In this document: piece after piece, positions 13,576-20,548 of the stretch
Numbering within the stretch: position 1 is the first letter of the stretch
How the letters are laid out: each line of letters begins with the position of its first letter
Origin: Oscillospiraceae bacterium
GTDB lineage: Bacteria > Bacillota > Clostridia > Oscillospirales > SIG627
Reading direction: 5' to 3'
NCBI GenBank assembly: GCA_015065085.1
Contig: SVQW01000002.1
Location: 132,197-196,196 of the forward strand
DNA: 64,000 nucleotides
Program-made: the position numbers and the translations under genes
Notes under the pieces: generated by a model
Seen by the model: the letters and a program-made list of their open reading frames with translations, nothing else
The model's database searches: none
What the model was told of the DNA's origin: nothing

Positions 13576-13785
13576 TCAGTTCTGCTTGCGAACGAATTTA
13601 TACTCATCGTAAAATTTATAATACGGACAATCGTACTTTTTGCCGTATGCCATGCGCGCCATTTCGTCCTCGTCAAAGCTTACGGTACATTCGTTTTGTT
13701 CGGTATCAATATTGTAGTCGTAATATGCACAGGTTTCGCACTGTGCATTTTTGTTTTCGCCTGCCACATCCATTCCTCCATGCAT
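13576..13785 (-). CDS. 69-aa acidic/aromatic four-Cys miniprotein (uncharacterised)
   Basis: The ATG overlaps the upstream stop (TAATG). An alternative GTG at 13767 lies behind GGAGGA. Has CxxC plus two more Cys (CETC...C...C). The C-terminal KKYDCPYYKFYDEYKF repeats the tail of the upstream protein. Confidence 0.6.
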   Translation of the reverse strand: MHGGMDVAGENKNAQCETCAYYDYNIDTEQNECTVSFDEDEMARMAYGKKYDCPYYKFYDEYKFVRKQN

Positions 13786-16070
13786 TAAAAGTCATAAAAC
13801 GGATAATCGTATTTTTTGAAGTCGTAATAGGAATAGTCCTTGTTCTCTTCTTTTTCTTCCTTTTTATTCTTTTCCATCTTTACTTCACGCATTTTAAGGC
13901 TGATTTCATCAAGCATATCAAGCGCCTCGGTCTTTGTGCCGTCCGCCACACGGTCAATCGGCTCGCCCTTTTCGGTCAATTCAAGCTTCATTTCGCTTTC
14001 GTCACATTCCACCAGACATGGATGGAGCTTTAATGAAAGGCTTTTATGCGTTCCGAATTCTTTGTAGTAATGCACATACATATCCGTAAATCTGAAACCG
14101 CTGACGCGCATGAAAGCATTCCATCTGCGGTGCTCCAGCCAGGCAAGTCTGTGACGCATCCATGCATCCTCCGTCACAACAAGATCGCCCTTTGCAAAGC
14201 TTTCATACTTTTGGTAATCCTTTTTGAGCGCTTCAAGATAAGTATCATAGTCCTTTTCGTCAAAAACAGAGGCGGTTGCCATACCACAGGAAAACATCTT
14301 ATACGGGATATGCACCGCACGTGCCGAATTAGCCCAGAAGGTGTAATCATCCCTTGTGCGCTTCTTGTTACTCTTAGCTCGTTTTTCGGCATCCGCGGCA
14401 AAATTATACTTTTCATCCAGCGAATCCGCCTTTATGCTCAGTTCGGGACTCAATACATTTCCCGCACTGTACATCTCGCCCATCGAGCCGAAAGCATACA
14501 TATATATGTCGGGATAAAACATTTTGGAAGAGGTGAAGAGCCTTGCGTTGTTGAGCGCCTTGCACATTTCAGTATCATATATTGCGTATGCTATGACCGT
14601 TTTTTTGTTGTGCGCGGATTCAAGATGATATTTTCCGATTTCACGTCGCAACGCATCCGCAACAGTAAGATTAAGCTCGTCCGAACCCAATGCCACAACG
14701 AAATAGTCGGTGTCAAGAAGAGAAATGCCGTCCTTGTTCTTTTTCTCGAGCAGCTGAGGAATGTTTTCGAATCTCACATCTGCGCCAAAAAAGCTGAAGG
14801 AGCAATAGGGATTAGAAAATTCTCCTCTTTTATTCTTGACGAGTATTGGGTCATTTTCCGTTGCGGATTTTATTATATCGCAATTTATGCGGTTGAGTCT
14901 TCCCTCAAAATCCTCCTTGGTTTCATTGGCAACAACATTTATTCTGAGCTTACTGTCCAGTACCTGTCCGCACCAGTAAGTACCGGTAAGTACCTCGGTT
15001 CCGATAGAACCTGTACCGAAAACAGTTACGTTAAGGTCGGTATTAAGCCCCGGCTTTCTTCTGTGGATAAGCGGCTGATACAGCGGCACCTTCTGCAAAA
15101 GATTGCAGGCCAGCTTGCGGTAGCACTGAGCGGGAGTAACCGACGGCATTTCGCCTTCCTCAAGCCTTGAAGAAAGCATTTCAATAAAGCTCTTTTCTGC
15201 CAGAACATACGAATCATCCTGGCTAAACATGAATATTTCGGAATTTTTGAGATAACCCACATCCTTGCCGTCAGCCATTTTAGTCAGAGTGTGAAGGTTG
15301 TTTATCTCCTGCTCATCAATAAGAAAATACTTATTTTCAATATTCTTTTTCTTTTTTACATGTAAAATGTCATCCTGCAGGCAGATAGCGCCCATTGACT
15401 TTGCGGTTTTAATAAGCTCACTGCTCTTTTCGCTTTCGTCATCATGATATGCGTCGGTAAAAATAATCAGGGGCTTGGGGCTGTCTGCGTTATTCTCGGA
15501 CAGACTTGAAGCAAGTACTGCCGAGCGGGAATTAAGCTCGCTGAAATAGCAACGCATACGGCGTGAAAATTTCATAATGCACCATACTTTAAGCTTGGGG
15601 AATATATTAACCAGCACATCCAGTATTATTGCGCCCCCTGCAATGGGCGAGATAATATTGAGAACAGAGGCAAATATTCTGAAGCCTACACACATCCACT
15701 CACGTCCGAAAGCATAAAGAGAAGCCTGCTTCAAGCTCTGCATATATCCCTCGTAATCCGCATCCATACTGAAGGTCTGAAGCGATGCCACAACCGAAGA
15801 AAACAGTTCCTCCCACCAGGTAGATACCACAGCATCCCTTTCGGGCGATCGTACAACGTACAGACTTACGGCATACCTCATAAGAAATACCGCCAAAAGA
15901 AGTATTCCTGAAATTATAAATACGCTTTTTTCATTGAAGAAAGCAGTTCTGCACTCATTCTTTTTGCAGAAGTACCTGATTATCTTATATATGTACCAGC
16001 CAAGCATTGCCAGTACCATCAAAAACGCAGCCATCATAAGTGCGCCTATCAATTCATGGGGCCATACCAT
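13785..16070 (-). CDS. membrane-anchored protein with Rossmann-like (TrkA_N-like) domain and C-terminal RyR-like domain
   Basis: N-terminal hydrophobic helices (LIGALMMAAFLMVLAMLGWYIY; VFIISGILLLAVFLM; ISPIAGGAIILDVLVNIF). GxGxxG at NVTVFGTGSIGTE (about 15001-15038). C-terminal LAWLEHRRWNAFMRVSGFRF...KLHPCLVE (13998-14147). Start set at ATG 16070 (GAAAGGAAG RBS spanning the esterase stop). The track start at 16121 has no RBS. Confidence 0.8.
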   Translation of the reverse strand: MVWPHELIGALMMAAFLMVLAMLGWYIYKIIRYFCKKNECRTAFFNEKSVFIISGILLLAVFLMRYAVSLYVVRSPERDAVVSTWWEELFSSVVASLQTFSMDADYEGYMQSLKQASLYAFGREWMCVGFRIFASVLNIISPIAGGAIILDVLVNIFPKLKVWCIMKFSRRMRCYFSELNSRSAVLASSLSENNADSPKPLIIFTDAYHDDESEKSSELIKTAKSMGAICLQDDILHVKKKKNIENKYFLIDEQEINNLHTLTKMADGKDVGYLKNSEIFMFSQDDSYVLAEKSFIEMLSSRLEEGEMPSVTPAQCYRKLACNLLQKVPLYQPLIHRRKPGLNTDLNVTVFGTGSIGTEVLTGTYWCGQVLDSKLRINVVANETKEDFEGRLNRINCDIIKSATENDPILVKNKRGEFSNPYCSFSFFGADVRFENIPQLLEKKNKDGISLLDTDYFVVALGSDELNLTVADALRREIGKYHLESAHNKKTVIAYAIYDTEMCKALNNARLFTSSKMFYPDIYMYAFGSMGEMYSAGNVLSPELSIKADSLDEKYNFAADAEKRAKSNKKRTRDDYTFWANSARAVHIPYKMFSCGMATASVFDEKDYDTYLEALKKDYQKYESFAKGDLVVTEDAWMRHRLAWLEHRRWNAFMRVSGFRFTDMYVHYYKEFGTHKSLSLKLHPCLVECDESEMKLELTEKGEPIDRVADGTKTEALDMLDEISLKMREVKMEKNKKEEKEENKDYSYYDFKKYDYPFYDF

Positions 16071-16090
16071 AAAATCTCTACTTCCTTTCG

Positions 16091-16723
16091 TTACAGCTTC
16101 CTGTTTTTGCTCATAAGCCATTCTATAAGCTTATCATTATAGGCGTGCTCCCAGACATTGTGTCCGACACCTTCAACACGTGAATAGGTAACATCCCCTC
16201 CGCGTGCTTTAATACTTTGTACCATATGGTCGGAATTGACAACGCTTACAACACTGTCCTCCACACCGTGAAATACCCACACCGGCATATCCAGCACTCC
16301 TGCATTCCAGGGCATTCCGCCGCCGCATACAGGCGATATAGCGGCAAACATTCGGGGGCATGCCATTGCGGTGAACCAAGTACCGTAGCCTCCCATACTC
16401 AGACCGGTAAGATAAATTCTTTGCTTATCAACCTCAAATTCCTCAGAAATCTTCTGAATGAAGCTTATTATCGACTCCACCTTTGCTGCCCAGAAAGTAT
16501 CAGGAGGGCACTGAGGCATAACAAAAATACAATCATATTCGTTTTTTGCCATAAGCTTCGAAAAGCCGTGAACATCCACCTTTGATAGGTCATCACCGCC
16601 CTTGCCCCTTTCACCCGCACCGTGAAGCTGGACCACAAGGGGGAGATTGCTTTTTTCGTTTTCGGGTGAATACTTAACAAACGGGAAAGCCCATTGTGAG
16701 CCTCTGCATTCTGTTCTTTTCAT
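16091..16723 (-). CDS. alpha/beta-hydrolase, esterase/serine-hydrolase family (LpqC/carboxylesterase-like)
   Basis: Oxyanion region LHGAGERG, nucleophile elbow GLSMGG, acid FHGVEDSVV and His in GVGHNVW. No signal peptide. The ATG lies 4 nt after the upstream stop, with a GAAAGG RBS. Confidence 0.85.
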   Translation of the reverse strand: MKRTECRGSQWAFPFVKYSPENEKSNLPLVVQLHGAGERGKGGDDLSKVDVHGFSKLMAKNEYDCIFVMPQCPPDTFWAAKVESIISFIQKISEEFEVDKQRIYLTGLSMGGYGTWFTAMACPRMFAAISPVCGGGMPWNAGVLDMPVWVFHGVEDSVVSVVNSDHMVQSIKARGGDVTYSRVEGVGHNVWEHAYNDKLIEWLMSKNRKL

Positions 16724-16727
16724 AAAA

Positions 16728-19700
16728 TCAGCCTTTCAGTATACTTTCGATTTCGGCACCTGAAAGATGATTTTGGGTTATCAGTGCATCTACCAGTGCA
16801 TCCATCTTTTTCCTGTTCTTTTCTATTATTTCAACAGCAAGCTGAAGCTGTTCGGCAAGTATCTTATTTACCGATGAGCGGACCTCGCGTGACAGCTCAC
16901 CGCTTCTTGCAGACTCGCTTTCTATGGTGGCAAGCCCGAATTCTTCGTCCATGCCGTAGGTACAGATTATGTGCTGTGCCATATTGGTTGCAGAATTCAA
17001 ATCTCCGCTTGCTCCTGTGGAAATACCGTCCTTATTACCGTAATAAACAATTTCCGCTGCTCTTCCGCCCAGTGCAGTGCGTATACGGCTGACAAGCTCA
17101 TCCTTTGTGTAGCTTCCTTTATTTTCGGTATCACCATGTTGCATATATCCGCCGTGGTCGCCACGTGCAACCACCGTAAGATATGACGGTGTTTCACCGC
17201 TTTCGTAGCATATAAAGGCGTGTCCCGCTTCATGTCTTGCGGTGCGCTCCAGCTGAGACGGATCCCACTTTTTCTTTTCACCGCTTGTAAAGGTTTCAAA
17301 GGCTTCCTCAAATGCTTCGTCGGTAACCTTAATATCACCCTCGCGGATGGCAGTTCTTAAAGACATTTCAAAAACCGATTCCAGTGCGGCAAGGCTCATG
17401 CCGGTGGAACGCACGGCTATATTTTCAATTTTTTCTTCACTGATGGTGTATATTGGGTTTTCAGATGCTTTAAGCCTCATGTAACGGATTCGTTCCTGCT
17501 TATTCGGCAAATCGATGTATACCCGTCTGTCAAAACGGCGCATAAGCGCACCGTCAAGGCTCTTGGGACTTCCCGGCTCTACGTCGAAATTGGTGGCAGC
17601 CAATACGAACACAGGCTTTGTAACATCGTTCTTGAAGCCGTCCATTTCCGTAAGAAACGCTGTGAGAATTTCCTCTGCTCCGCTGTTGTTGTCACCGCCC
17701 TTACGTTCTTTGGCAATGGCATCTATTTCATCCACAAAAACTATGGCAGGCGCGTATTTTCTTGCCGTTCTGAACAGCTCATGCACCTTTTCGGGGCCTT
17801 CGCCTACATACTTTTTCAAAAACTGGTTTCCCTCGGCAGTAATAAAAGTAGCGTCCGATTCACTCGCCATTGCTTTTGCAAGCATGGTTTTACCCGTGCC
17901 GGGCGGGCCGTAAAGCAATACACCTCTGGGAGCTCTCACACCCGTACCTATGTACTTTTTGGGGTTTCTGAGATATTCGGCAAAGTATTTCAGCTCTTTC
18001 TTGGCATCCTCGGCACCGATAACTTTATCAAAGCTTATATTGGGCTTGGACACATTACTGAGTATATTCTCGGAATCCTCAGCATCAAGCGCGATCTCCA
18101 TTCTGAAATCAAAAAGTCTTATTTCAGCCGTCTTGCCTCCGTTCTTAAGGCACTGGGCGGTTTCAAACCTCACCAGTTTATTGGCCTTTGCAAGTGTCTC
18201 CATGCTGTTTTGCTGGTGAAGGGCGGCACAGATAATATCCATATCCTGCGAAAAGCTCTTTTTATTTCCCTCAAGAGTTATTACACCCCTGACGCCCTGG
18301 CGCATGAAGGAAACCTTTTCCTCGTCGTTGAACTGATGGGCGCGGGTTTCCAGCAGATACGTGGGAAGCTGATTATAATTCTCGCGTATAAAGTGCAAAA
18401 AGTCGCGTGCGGAGGAATCCACATCCTCTACATTGAGATACTCGTTAAGCGGATTTCTTATGCCGTAATTCACATCAAAAAGCGCCAATGCTATTTCGTT
18501 TTCCCGTATTACCTTTTTGGCACTGTCAAGGTCAGAAACATGTATAAAACTGCATCCGCATCTTGCGTCACTGCACAGCTGTGCAATCTCTTCCTGAGCG
18601 AAAACGATAACCTTTGGAGGCTCCATTCCTTCAAAGAGCGACAGCACCTCGTCATTGTCACTTGGCAAATCAAGAGTAATATTTATATTGTTTATCTTTT
18701 TTACAGAGCCTTTGAGTGAGTCTGATGCGGCAAGACGGAAAAGCTCGAAAAGCTCATCGTCAAAAAACGCCTCCGCACGGCTTCGTACCGTTCTGGCATC
18801 CGTAGCTCCGCCCTCTGCAAACAGCAGTGCAGTATACACCTTTTCGTCTATATCTACCTTTACACCTATCTCGTTCTCAAAGTCGCGGGCATGTCGCAAT
18901 ACCTCATTCTTGGCAATCATGCGCAGGCTGTGGGCTGAAATGTGATTGAACATAACCACGTTTCCCGAAGCAAAGCGGGAGCATATGGCACCCGGGAAAA
19001 ACGGAACACCCGTTTCGGGATTTTTGTCATTCTGAAGTGCTTTTAGAATAACCTTACGTGTAACGCATGAGAAATCTCCGTTTTCGGAGTTTTCATAAAG
19101 CTGTTTTCCCGCATTGGTGGTAAGTATTATTATGGTATCCGAGAAGGACACCTCGTTATCGGTATAGTTGTCGCGCAGTCTGCCTGCATCCAGCATCTGC
19201 AAGAACAGATGTATAACGCACATATGAGCCTTTTCAATTTCATCAAACAGCAGTACGCATCTGGGGTTCTTCTCAACAAAGCTTGTAACATTACCGGCCT
19301 TGCCGTTTTTATATACCTTGTCCGAACCGCAGAATTCAATATTTGCTTCCTTATCGGCATACTCACTCATATCAAAACGCATGAAAGGAAGCCCCAGCTC
19401 CATTGCGGCACTTTCCGCCAGAAAAGTTTTTCCCACTCCGGGAGGACCCGCAAAAAGAAATGTAGCGCGGGGTCTGGTGCGGGTTTTGTCGGTAAGTGCG
19501 AGAAGCTCGGAGCGAAAATACCCCGAGGCAAAAACGCTTATGGCATTATCCTGTCCGAAAATTTTACCGGACAGTGCCTTTTGTATATTCTTCACCTTGT
19601 TTACAAGGTATTCCATCTTTTCCTTGGGATTGTCAGGCAGCTTTTCCTGAGGCAGCTTCACCTCGGGCTGAGGCTTTTTTGCGGGCTTCTTTTCTTCCAA

Positions 19701-20246
19701 AGCGACATCTTCATCGCAATCCATTTTGAATTTTTTGGCAAAATTTTCTTTTATTTTTTTCTTTTCTTCATCTGAAATCGAAGAAAGCGGTTTTTCACCT
19801 TCATTGCCGTTTTTCTTGCCCGATTCCCATTCGGTGCCGTAGCTTTTACGTATACAATTTCTTATTCTTTCGTTGGGAACGGCAAATATGACCTCGAGAA
19901 GCAGCTCGGGGGTAAGGCAGGGATGCTTTTTTTCAACCGCTTTTTCGGTTGCTTCCTTCAATTTACGCTTCATATACAATTCATCCAGGAATCCCGTAGA
20001 TTTGGGGTCGGACACATACTCATTGAGTATGTCGGAAGCAACATCCATGTCTATTCCGTTTTTAATGAATATTTCCTTAAAGATTGTTATTATCGCCGTT
20101 TCTTTCGTTCCGGTACTTTCCTGCACCGTTTTTATTACCGCCAGAAGAAACCGCTCCACCGTGAGAATTCCCAAAGTATTGTTGCCTATAAACTTTGAGT
20201 AAGACAGCAACGAATCCAGCAAAGCACTGTTTTTTATTTCAGCCAT
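16728..20246 (-). CDS. 1172-aa soluble hybrid AAA+ protease: Clp_N-like + ClpB-D2-type AAA + REC-like + FtsH-type AAA + M41 metalloprotease
   Basis: N-terminal double Clp_N-like repeat (LTVERFLLAVIK / LTPELLLEVIF). AAA_2 module: IFGQDNAI, GPPGVGKT (~19423-19450), DMSEY, LLFDEIEKAH. Central CheY-like segment: KVIVFAQEE...ALALFDVNYG (~18270-18625). Classic AAA module: GPPGTGKT (~17886-17915), VFVDEIDA, ATNF, RRFDR. HEAGH zinc motif at 17220-17234. No TM segment. Confidence 0.9.
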   Translation of the reverse strand: MAEIKNSALLDSLLSYSKFIGNNTLGILTVERFLLAVIKTVQESTGTKETAIITIFKEIFIKNGIDMDVASDILNEYVSDPKSTGFLDELYMKRKLKEATEKAVEKKHPCLTPELLLEVIFAVPNERIRNCIRKSYGTEWESGKKNGNEGEKPLSSISDEEKKKIKENFAKKFKMDCDEDVALEEKKPAKKPQPEVKLPQEKLPDNPKEKMEYLVNKVKNIQKALSGKIFGQDNAISVFASGYFRSELLALTDKTRTRPRATFLFAGPPGVGKTFLAESAAMELGLPFMRFDMSEYADKEANIEFCGSDKVYKNGKAGNVTSFVEKNPRCVLLFDEIEKAHMCVIHLFLQMLDAGRLRDNYTDNEVSFSDTIIILTTNAGKQLYENSENGDFSCVTRKVILKALQNDKNPETGVPFFPGAICSRFASGNVVMFNHISAHSLRMIAKNEVLRHARDFENEIGVKVDIDEKVYTALLFAEGGATDARTVRSRAEAFFDDELFELFRLAASDSLKGSVKKINNINITLDLPSDNDEVLSLFEGMEPPKVIVFAQEEIAQLCSDARCGCSFIHVSDLDSAKKVIRENEIALALFDVNYGIRNPLNEYLNVEDVDSSARDFLHFIRENYNQLPTYLLETRAHQFNDEEKVSFMRQGVRGVITLEGNKKSFSQDMDIICAALHQQNSMETLAKANKLVRFETAQCLKNGGKTAEIRLFDFRMEIALDAEDSENILSNVSKPNISFDKVIGAEDAKKELKYFAEYLRNPKKYIGTGVRAPRGVLLYGPPGTGKTMLAKAMASESDATFITAEGNQFLKKYVGEGPEKVHELFRTARKYAPAIVFVDEIDAIAKERKGGDNNSGAEEILTAFLTEMDGFKNDVTKPVFVLAATNFDVEPGSPKSLDGALMRRFDRRVYIDLPNKQERIRYMRLKASENPIYTISEEKIENIAVRSTGMSLAALESVFEMSLRTAIREGDIKVTDEAFEEAFETFTSGEKKKWDPSQLERTARHEAGHAFICYESGETPSYLTVVARGDHGGYMQHGDTENKGSYTKDELVSRIRTALGGRAAEIVYYGNKDGISTGASGDLNSATNMAQHIICTYGMDEEFGLATIESESARSGELSREVRSSVNKILAEQLQLAVEIIEKNRKKMDALVDALITQNHLSGAEIESILKG

Positions 20247-20248
20247 TA

Positions 20249-20548
20249 TTAAATATCCCCTTTTGAATCATTTTTTTCTATTTTATATCCCAGTGCGATT
20301 ATAAGCTTCAGCGTCCCGATTGCCGTTATGCGGTCGTATTCCTTTTCTGATTCGGGAAGCTCATTATACGGCACAAGGCAGGGTGTGGTCTTTTTTATGT
20401 CGTCCCTTTTTTCGCCTAATGTCCAGCCCTCGGCAATACGCGCCTTTGCCCAGGTTTCATGAACATTTTCGGCTATTTTTTCCGTAAGCTCAATAAGCTC
20501 GCGGTCAAGACTTATATTATCTGTATTTATGGGTTTTGGTGTATACAT
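20249..20548 (-). CDS. stand-alone RyR (ryanodine-receptor-type) domain protein, 99 aa
   Basis: IAENVHETWAKARIAEGWTLGEKRDDIKKTTPCLVPYNELPESEKEYDRITAIGTLKLIIALGY matches the bacterial RyR-domain signature (HExWa...GWxxGexrd...kxxPxLvPyxeLxexeKexDR). GGAG RBS. The stop lies 2 nt before the next ATG. Confidence 0.85.
   Translation of the reverse strand: MYTPKPINTDNISLDRELIELTEKIAENVHETWAKARIAEGWTLGEKRDDIKKTTPCLVPYNELPESEKEYDRITAIGTLKLIIALGYKIEKNDSKGDI

Follow-up and report, generated by a model that had tools for sequence, protein, structure and literature searches.

An operon of an Oscillospiraceae bacterium raised the question of whether a bacterial membrane protein carries a hidden RyR repeat, and what such a repeat might sense. 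The operon lies on contig SVQW01000002.1, in a stretch of 64,000 nucleotides (nt) that was analyzed as a whole and is called the window here. Its first gene encodes a canonical, stand-alone RyR repeat of 99 amino acids (aa) (20249..20548, minus strand). The initial annotation of the window had recognized this repeat, and it matched Pfam RyR with E = 1.6e-35. Another gene of the same operon, the target, encodes a protein with transmembrane (TM) helices, two Rossmann-like domains, and a C-terminal unit that had been read as a second, divergent RyR-like domain. Profile–profile comparison, our own RyR hidden Markov model (HMM), a bridging paralogue, and Foldseek converged on RyR, from which we conclude that the unit is a genuine RyR repeat, homologous to the canonical one, although strongly degenerate. 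The two repeats are genetically coupled, by the operon here and as next gene or fusion in relatives. What is new is a degenerate, database-invisible RyR repeat on a membrane/RCK-like scaffold, with its canonical partner split off.

The apparent operon consists of five minus-strand genes, spaced by 2 to 20 nt or overlapping by 1 nt. Their order from 5' to 3' is the 99-aa RyR protein, an AAA+/M41 protease, an alpha/beta-hydrolase, the target, and a DUF6472 protein. The target open reading frame (ORF) spans 13785..16121 on the minus strand, as do all features of the target given below, and encodes 778 aa. Residues are numbered throughout from its first methionine (M1), not from the 761-aa protein that starts at the probable start codon, M18 (nt 16070). 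M18 was considered the better start because an AGGAAG sequence lies 10 nt upstream of its ATG, no ribosome-binding site precedes M1, and the NCBI record (MBE6688276.1, named 'hypothetical protein') has 761 aa. The initial annotation had placed the end of the gene at the same codon.

Residues 659–708 of the target (nt 14147–13998) read LAWLEHRRWNAFMRVSGFRF...SLKLHPCLVECDE and contain the motif EHRRW...G[FY]...LHPCLVEC. This segment and VFGTGSIGTE, both quoted in the initial annotation, were found at the positions given there. The part that aligned with RyR covers residues 651–708 (13998..14171) and was supported by hhalign, Foldseek, the RyR HMM, and the paralogue. It consists of helix α1 with EH664RRW667, followed by G675-F676, an 11-residue insertion, and LH700PCLVEC. 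Among 120 homologues with 35–44% identity to the target, E663, R665, R666, W667, R672, G675, H700, and E705 were invariant, and H664, P701, C702, and L703 were conserved in at least 90%. Judged by this conservation, the C-terminal motif is not a product of chance. After another insertion of about 25 residues, the AlphaFold 2 (AF2) model has a conserved helix at residues 736–755 (13857..13916), with the invariant D735 and D738 preceding or starting it. This helix, which lies outside the hhalign alignment, is a candidate for the RyR α2 equivalent.

The family region 645–712 (120 sequences) was compared by hhalign with an alignment of 56 RyR sequences, drawn from operon partners, fused domains, 3NRT, and RyR2 repeats 1–4. 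Residues 651–708 aligned to RyR 17–63 (Prob 70%, P = 4e-5) over 47 columns with 23% identity, and the motif register claimed in the initial annotation was that of this alignment. The best match of the full-length family profile coincided with this one (P = 1.4e-3), and the next had P = 0.15. The minimum P of 60 column-shuffled RyR controls was 1.8e-3, with a median of 0.26, and a small alignment of 8 RyR sequences gave only P = 0.009. With our own RyR HMM, the cropped units of the 120 members scored a median of 4.8 bits and a maximum of 13.9, whereas shuffled sequences had a median of -0.6 bits and a 95th percentile of 2.0. E-values from the small local databases used with this HMM, and with the family HMM on RyR proteins, are relative to those databases only.

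Foldseek with the full-length model gave no RyR match. Because its Rossmann domains dominated that search, the C-terminus was modeled alone. The AF2 model of residues 570–778 had a predicted local distance difference test score (pLDDT) of 87.6. Ten of its 13 PDB matches at E ≤ 10 were RyR-domain structures (3nrt, 4n05, 6uag, 6uam, 6ug5, and human RyR3 Repeat12 9l91). The eight closest of the B. thetaiotaomicron matches superposed with a root-mean-square deviation of 3.2–4.1 Å over 68–73 columns (3.2–3.7 Å over 68 columns and 4.1 Å over 73), with 19–22% identity and template-modeling scores (TMt) of 0.43–0.47. The top two of the seven BFVD matches were phage RyR-domain proteins. It is the RyR specificity rather than the E-value that carries weight in this result. 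The RyR-repeat fold has two long antiparallel helices per repeat and a terminal strand (PMC4530471). In the full-length model, the helical C-terminal domain extends over residues 578–778. A second hidden repeat in helices 570–650 was considered and rejected, since this region had no RyR similarity (hhalign P = 0.4).

In sequence, the unit resembles the repeats of PF02026, 3NRT, and the Repeat12 and Repeat34 modules of animal RyR1–3 in its order of xEHxxW in α1, G-aromatic, and K-x-H-P-C-L-V, and its HPCLVE is identical to that of RyR2 repeat 1. It differs from them in being missed by Pfam, in its 11- and approximately 25-residue insertions, and in a second half that could not be aligned.

A paralogue of about 600 aa bridged the target and the canonical repeats. 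It shares the whole target architecture (BLASTP 1e-31 over residues 65–705, spanning the unit) and ends in EHRRWNAYMRAEGYVFSGSKEKSSRNDLAKMHHDLVDFSSLTDEEKRKD. Its unit matched RyR by hhalign with Prob 91% and P = 1.1e-6, including an LVxYxxLxxxEKxxD segment, and it has the Asp72 equivalent in EEKRKD. Pfam RyR was the best of two families reported for it (E = 0.0024, 18.5 bits), below the PF02026 gathering score of 27.4 bits. Related loci and related proteins carry the labels L001–L085 and P0xxx in this analysis. The paralogue (about 596 aa) was seen at L001:4638-6428 and also in L002, L018, L038, L039, L050, and L083–L085. It keeps the layout of TM helices, Rossmann domains, and EHRRW-unit but stops just past the unit. 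In nine loci (L001, L002, and seven GTDB loci) its gene is found upstream of the AAA+/M41 gene, adjoining it in seven. The paralogue is highly conserved, with at least 70% identity among 120 matches. One NCBI record of the paralogue is named 'urea transporter', probably a misannotation.

The conserved residues of the unit were compared with the ligand contacts of two phage proteins. These phage proteins bind or cleave 2'cADPR, 3'cADPR, and cyclic ADP-ribose (cADPR) as back-to-back dimers, RyDEP with H75, W78, H100, and D117 (bioRxiv 10.64898/2026.05.28.727677) and RyR Tad gp68 through H129/W132, H154/K147, and K170/D171 (bioRxiv 10.64898/2026.06.04.730250). RyDEP H75/W78/H100/D117 and RyR Tad H129/W132/H154/D171 correspond to repeat positions 30/33/55/72. 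H664, W667, and H700 of the target align with positions 30, 33, and 55, and they were invariant or nearly so in the 120 homologues. The Asp72 equivalent falls outside the target alignment, where D735 and D738 are candidates. The target probably shares the fold family of RyDEP and RyR Tad, and it has His, Trp, and His at the positions aligned with their contact residues. As these phage proteins bind 2'cADPR, 3'cADPR, or cADPR, they offer a concrete candidate ligand class. They are, however, viral proteins, small and soluble, that act against defence as sponges or glycosidases (anti-Thoeris), whereas the present proteins are cellular, and one of them sits in the membrane and has Rossmann domains.

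The 99-aa partner and B. thetaiotaomicron 3NRT share about 70% identity (E = 1e-36). The partner carries H30, W33, and D72, and a Thr at position 55, another difference from the phage proteins. H30, W33, and D72 were kept in all 43 partner RyR ORFs of loci L001–L085. Position 55 is His in 3NRT, in RyR2 repeat 1 and, according to the preprints, in RyDEP and RyR Tad. One may speculate that the His of the target complements the Thr of the partner. RyR repeats are dimerization modules (bioRxiv 10.64898/2026.05.28.727677 and 10.64898/2026.06.04.730250; PMC4530471). Pfam DUF7701 (PF24792) gave weak matches that overlapped or neighbored RyR repeats, in P0437 (E = 6e-7), in the 99-aa protein (E = 0.19), and in P0381, and in 5 of 89 multidomain RyR proteins overall. 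DUF7701 may be another RyR-related repeat family.

The N-terminal part of the target was analyzed by hydropathy and AF2. Hydropathy peaked at 2.1–2.4 at about residues 17–49, 60–92, and 142–183, and the full-length AF2 model, built from a 120-sequence alignment, had a pLDDT of 89.2 and a predicted template-modeling score of 0.85. The two methods gave three TM helices; the initial annotation had counted at least three. TM helix 1 covers residues 21–52 (15966..16061; hydropathy 2.29) and TM helix 2 residues 64–91, with an invariant R82 (15849..15932). TM helix 3, at residues 141–185 (15567..15701), is a 45-residue helix with a conserved PIAGG that continues into the cytoplasmic domain. Helices 2 and 3 were also marked by conservation. 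Between them, residues 102–138 (15708..15818) form two short, highly conserved helices (102–117 and 123–138 in AF2) and an acidic loop, with the family consensus LQTFSMDEDY. The LQTFSMD(E/A)DY segment was near-invariant in the target family, not in the paralogue. As a guess, it might act as a pore or re-entrant segment or bind a metal. Loops rich in Lys and Arg occur at residues 48–65 and 175–200 and place the C-terminal 600 or so residues in the cytoplasm.

Two Rossmann-like domains follow. Domain 1 (residues 190–345; 15087..15554) is an alpha/beta domain without GxGxxG, recognized by AF2 and Foldseek. Domain 2 (residues 361–545; 14487..15041) is TrkA_N/RCK-like and carries GxGxxG within VFGTGSIGTE (residues 366–375; nt 14997–15026). 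G369 and G371 were invariant in the family, and G369-x-G371-x-x-G374 as a whole was invariant or nearly so. At this site the AF2 model has the beta-alpha-beta order of a Rossmann fold, with a strand at 361–368, a helix at 372–384, and a strand at 390–398. Pfam found no TrkA_N (PF02254) in the target at E ≤ 1. One of 42 family members matched TrkA_N (E = 0.031), the paralogue matched below threshold (E = 1.2e-3; 3 precomputed matches among members of its family), and the relative P0431 reached E = 1.3e-4 and 22.7 bits against a cut-off of 23.8. Foldseek matches of the Rossmann part were two-Rossmann proteins and Slo RCK pairs, with E about 1e-3, and the best full-length matches included Slo1 and Slo2.2 (TM plus RCK pair) and two-Rossmann enzymes. 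Hydropathy, AF2, and Foldseek together supported the earlier description of the target as a membrane-tethered Rossmann protein. As in RCK-gated K+ channels of the Slo1, Slo2.2, and MthK type, a membrane domain is followed by two RCK-type Rossmann-like domains. The target differs from those channels in having three TM helices only, with no K+ selectivity filter or 6-TM core. The E of the channel matches was only about 1e-3 and their TMq about 0.3, and channel activity is a conjecture.

The coupling of the degenerate unit to a canonical repeat was followed through the relatives. The target protein had no match in Pfam, NCBIfam, PADLOC, or PDB sequences, and full-text literature searches found no published description of its family. 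It belongs to an unannotated family, mainly of gut Oscillospirales, that Pfam, NCBIfam, and PADLOC models do not cover. A GTDB scan found relatives in 143 of 185,579 species genomes; the locus counts given here cover the best 80 of these 143, all from gut Clostridia and mostly from Oscillospirales. A canonical RyR was encoded adjacent and downstream in 33 of the 80 loci, as a fusion in 1, and at another place in the locus in 4; 3 loci were not assessable. In the five contigs that were looked up, an RyR gene of about 93 aa was always next downstream or fused. An RyR domain was fused at the C-terminus, right after the family tail, in 7 of the best 120 homologues.

This conserved tail, DFKKYDYPFYDF in the target (residues 767–778; 13788..13823), has an invariant K769 and D772. 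In fused relatives it runs as DFKxYDYP directly into the canonical RyR repeat, and the spacing from unit to repeat is comparable to that of a tandem RyR repeat. In the fused proteins P0070, P0074, and P0101, the family tail DFKxYDYPxxDF aligned with YxPxP(I/V)D at the N-terminus of the RyR repeat. The unfused proteins may end in a vestigial first strand of an RyR repeat, a trace of gene fission or fusion. Operon, fusions, adjacency, and recurrence are thus genomic evidence for a pair, be it a tandem or a dimer of single repeats. As in known paired RyR repeats, the degenerate unit is coupled to or followed by a canonical one; unlike in tandem RyR repeats, this window encodes the second repeat in a gene of its own.

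RyR repeats of other architectures were also collected. The 99-aa protein had 5993 relatives among 1.84 billion cluster representatives. A homologue search with it returned only near-identical stand-alone repeats, which gave no architecture information. In 89 multidomain RyR proteins, the partners were Ion_trans (10), TPR-S (6), PKD_channel (5), and Ion_trans_2 (4), and more rarely TrkA_N (3), cNMP_binding (3), and TIR_2 (2). The initial annotation had stated that bacterial RyR domains are often fused to TrkA_N. Such fusions do exist (P0410, P0414, and P0437), but ion-channel domains were the commoner partners. Fusions close to the RyR of the window carried Abi_2 (P0449), TIR (P0505), an ion channel (P0501), or TPR-S plus a nucleotide cyclase (P0495), indicating that cellular RyR repeats occur in both defence-type and ion-channel contexts. 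P0501 is a bacterial Ion_trans+RyR protein of the voltage-gated channel type from Ca. Brocadiia.

P0410, P0414, P0437, P0381, P0501, and P0431 resemble the target in having a membrane and/or TrkA_N/RCK-like part followed by C-terminal RyR repeats. Unlike in the target, their Rossmann and RyR parts are mostly recognized by Pfam and lie in one chain; all are uncharacterized. An EHxRW-type unit followed by a canonical RyR recurred in P0431, P0429, and P0424. P0431, with 4 TM helices and TrkA_N, is a distant relative of the target family (HMM E = 3.5e-28). P0424 combines a protein kinase with a Rossmann domain, and its unit, EHRRW...THPCLL, matched Pfam RyR below the cut-off (17.2 bits, E = 0.0062). 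Found in unrelated architectures, the degenerate-then-canonical order is a recurrent and probably ancient pairing.

The second gene of the operon encodes a soluble double-AAA+ protease of 1172 aa with Peptidase_M41 (16728..20246, minus strand), recognized by domain searches. A ClpA/B-D2-like AAA domain, a middle region of about 230 residues, an FtsH-type AAA domain, and Peptidase_M41 follow one another. The protein has an intact HEAGH and two intact Walker A/B pairs but lacks a TM helix. Canonical FtsH has a TM anchor. The N-terminal 210 or so residues and the middle region had no family assignment, and the architecture is unusual for an FtsH relative. The double-AAA+/M41 gene was immediately upstream of the target-family gene in 23 of the 80 loci and elsewhere in 3, and 13 loci were not assessable. 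In searches against the anti-phage system models of PADLOC-DB 2.0, the target and its RyR partner had no match; only the protease matched, and only generic AAA models (IetA and DolB).

Other genes accompanied the family in some loci. A CARF4-PD-(D/E)xK nuclease (Can2/Card1-like; PADLOC E = 5e-30) was in the operon in 19 of the 80 loci. This 418-aa protein is encoded upstream of the AAA+/M41 gene at L040:4968-6224 and in 18 other GTDB loci. YbjN-like proteins were found in 14 of the 80 loci, and one or two of them, of about 159 aa, often came just before the CARF nuclease gene. No Cas10 or other cyclase, as a source of any cyclic-oligoadenylate signal, was seen near the CARF nuclease genes. At L001:12602-22273 and L002:12720-15968, TIR-domain proteins are encoded directly downstream of the target–RyR pair. 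The flanks of these two loci contain TIR-STAND/NACHT, Tubulin_2-TIR, and TIR-kinase-FHA genes, plus NUDIX and HD genes, and look like a defence island. TIR domains make the ligands that phage RyR proteins bind. Most flanking genes in the related loci are ordinary metabolic genes.

From these observations we propose that the target combines a membrane domain, an RCK-like module, and one half of a split RyR pair, senses an adenine or ADP-ribose-type nucleotide through that pair, and acts in conflict or defence, often together with a soluble FtsH-like AAA+ protease, a reading that we consider about equally likely to be right or wrong. The degenerate and canonical repeats would form a back-to-back pair, as Repeat1 does with Repeat2 in RyR Repeat12; B. 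thetaiotaomicron RyR, RyDEP, and RyR Tad, as homodimers, provide an alternative packing model, and the degenerate unit may itself homodimerize. The ligand of the pair would be an adenine nucleotide or a cADPR-like signal derived from NAD. The RCK-like module would then relay ligand occupancy to the membrane domain, causing ion-flux gating or loss of membrane integrity. Occupancy might also, or instead, be passed to the soluble FtsH-like AAA+ protease, with the membrane protein as its anchor, adaptor, or substrate. It is plausible that the target is the sensor or anchor of the module, as had been suggested; the stand-alone RyR might just as well modulate the system or buffer the ligand. The distribution is patchy, the flanks vary, and relatives have accessory CARF-nuclease and TIR genes, which suggests that the system would serve conflict or defence rather than housekeeping.

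Several results weigh against this reading, and some of them concern the identity of the unit. The simplest check proposed in the initial annotation, scoring the C-terminus with the RyR HMM, came out negative: PF02026 gave no match on the full target at E ≤ 1, or on the cropped residues 640–765 even at E ≤ 10. BLASTP of the target against the 99-aa protein gave no match, and phmmer and family HMM searches of PDB sequences returned no RyR chain. No Foldseek match was significant alone (best E = 4.8 in PDB and 0.37 in BFVD). Only about the first 60% of the repeat aligned, and neither the α2 equivalent nor the catalytic/ribose-contacting Asp was established. Given the missing Pfam match, Foldseek E-values that never fell below threshold, and an alignment of just 47 columns, the RyR resemblance might be convergent or due to chance, and the C-terminus an unrelated helical domain sharing a few residues. 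We consider this very improbable, as four independent tests agree on family and register, Pfam RyR is the best match of the paralogue and P0424 units (E = 2e-3 to 6e-3), the ligand residues are conserved, and the unit persistently accompanies canonical RyR repeats in at least four architectures. The divergent RyR-like domain was thus upheld by profile–profile comparison, the paralogue, the sub-threshold but RyR-specific Foldseek matches, and the contact residues, though not by the Pfam HMM or BLASTP.

Other results bear on the proposed function. The phosphate-contacting position 55 is Thr, not His, in 40 of the 43 partner RyRs. There was no RyR gene within 10 kb in 39 of the 80 loci, indicating that the partner is facultative and pairing in trans not obligatory. 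The suggestion that the two modules bind to each other or share a ligand gained good genomic support from adjacency, natural fusions, and recurrence of the pair, but an obligate partnership did not. TIR_2 was rare across the 80 loci, occurring in 4 of 129 flanking genes, and TIR was rejected as a core partner on this count. The family lacks a PADLOC match, and in this window no TIR, CARF, or cyclase gene lies near the operon, leaving no visible signal source. The TIR synthase that a Thoeris-type effector would have in its operon or island is likewise absent from this window, as are the YbjN-like, NUDIX, and HD genes of relatives. The protein could instead belong to housekeeping ion transport, as an RCK-ring-gated cation channel or transporter whose RyR units sense ATP, ADP, or NAD (as proposed for animal Repeat12), with the protease in quality control of the membrane protein and no part in conflict. 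Slo1 and Slo2.2 are among its best full-length structural matches, an acidic loop is conserved between its TM helices, and Ion_trans, Ion_trans_2, and PKD channels, including the bacterial P0501, are the commonest RyR partners sampled. In related loci the flanking genes are mostly ordinary metabolic ones, and no defence gene lies nearby in this window. Even so, we regard this role as unlikely: there are only three TM helices and no recognizable pore signature, the acidic loop is not kept in the paralogue, and the family is rare and, in its best 80 loci, confined to gut Clostridia. Its neighborhoods vary, it has duplicated copies in one metagenome-assembled genome (MAG; L040/L041), and its partners in relatives include the CARF-nuclease, TIR, YbjN-like, and double-AAA+ protease genes. 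A ligand-free anchor or adaptor that recruits the soluble FtsH-like protease or serves as its substrate, with the RyR units as docking modules, seems to us decidedly improbable. The 41 loci of 80 with the membrane protein and no protease argue against it, as do the His, Trp, and His at ligand-contact positions, which pure docking would not need, and the GxGxxG Rossmann domain, which points to nucleotide binding. It would nevertheless suit a protease that lacks the canonical FtsH TM anchor and is encoded upstream of the target gene in this operon and immediately upstream in 23 of the 80 loci, and it would suit the known dimerization of RyR repeats.

As the locus shows, a class of degenerate 'EHRRW-type' RyR repeats that precede canonical ones escapes domain databases. 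The locus is also a testable bacterial system for what RyR repeats sense, and the family a possible evolutionary precedent for the regulation of membrane channels by RyR repeats. A bolder version, which we hold to be a long shot, makes this family and the phage RyR sponges counterparts, with the family on the cellular, receptor side: a bacterial membrane effector, possibly an RCK-gated cation channel or pore, whose split RyR pair, with the degenerate repeat in cis and the canonical one in trans, senses an NAD-derived or adenine-nucleotide alarm signal and triggers membrane and proteolytic responses. In that case, gating of a membrane channel by RyR repeats would be a prokaryotic invention predating the Repeat12 module of animal RyRs.

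The remaining two genes of the operon were assigned by domain searches. The alpha/beta-hydrolase (16091..16723, minus strand) is an esterase-like protein of 210 aa, and the DUF6472 protein (13576..13785, minus strand) is a Cys-rich protein of 69 aa whose start overlaps the target stop codon by 1 nt. The operon includes these two genes in this window only; they did not recur among the 80 related loci and were rejected as conserved components of the system on this ground. Promoter and terminator scans were uninformative. The MoxR-vWA-FtsH ternary systems (Kaur et al. 2020, PMC7159879), in whose description RyR is not mentioned, were dropped as a different system. Two copies of the whole system, L040 and L041, occurred in one MAG. 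Two target-family genes in tandem were seen at L009:9808-15000 (748 and 762 aa) and L010:4574-9873 (742 and 741 aa), and in both loci the RyR gene comes after the second of the two copies, which is the more divergent.

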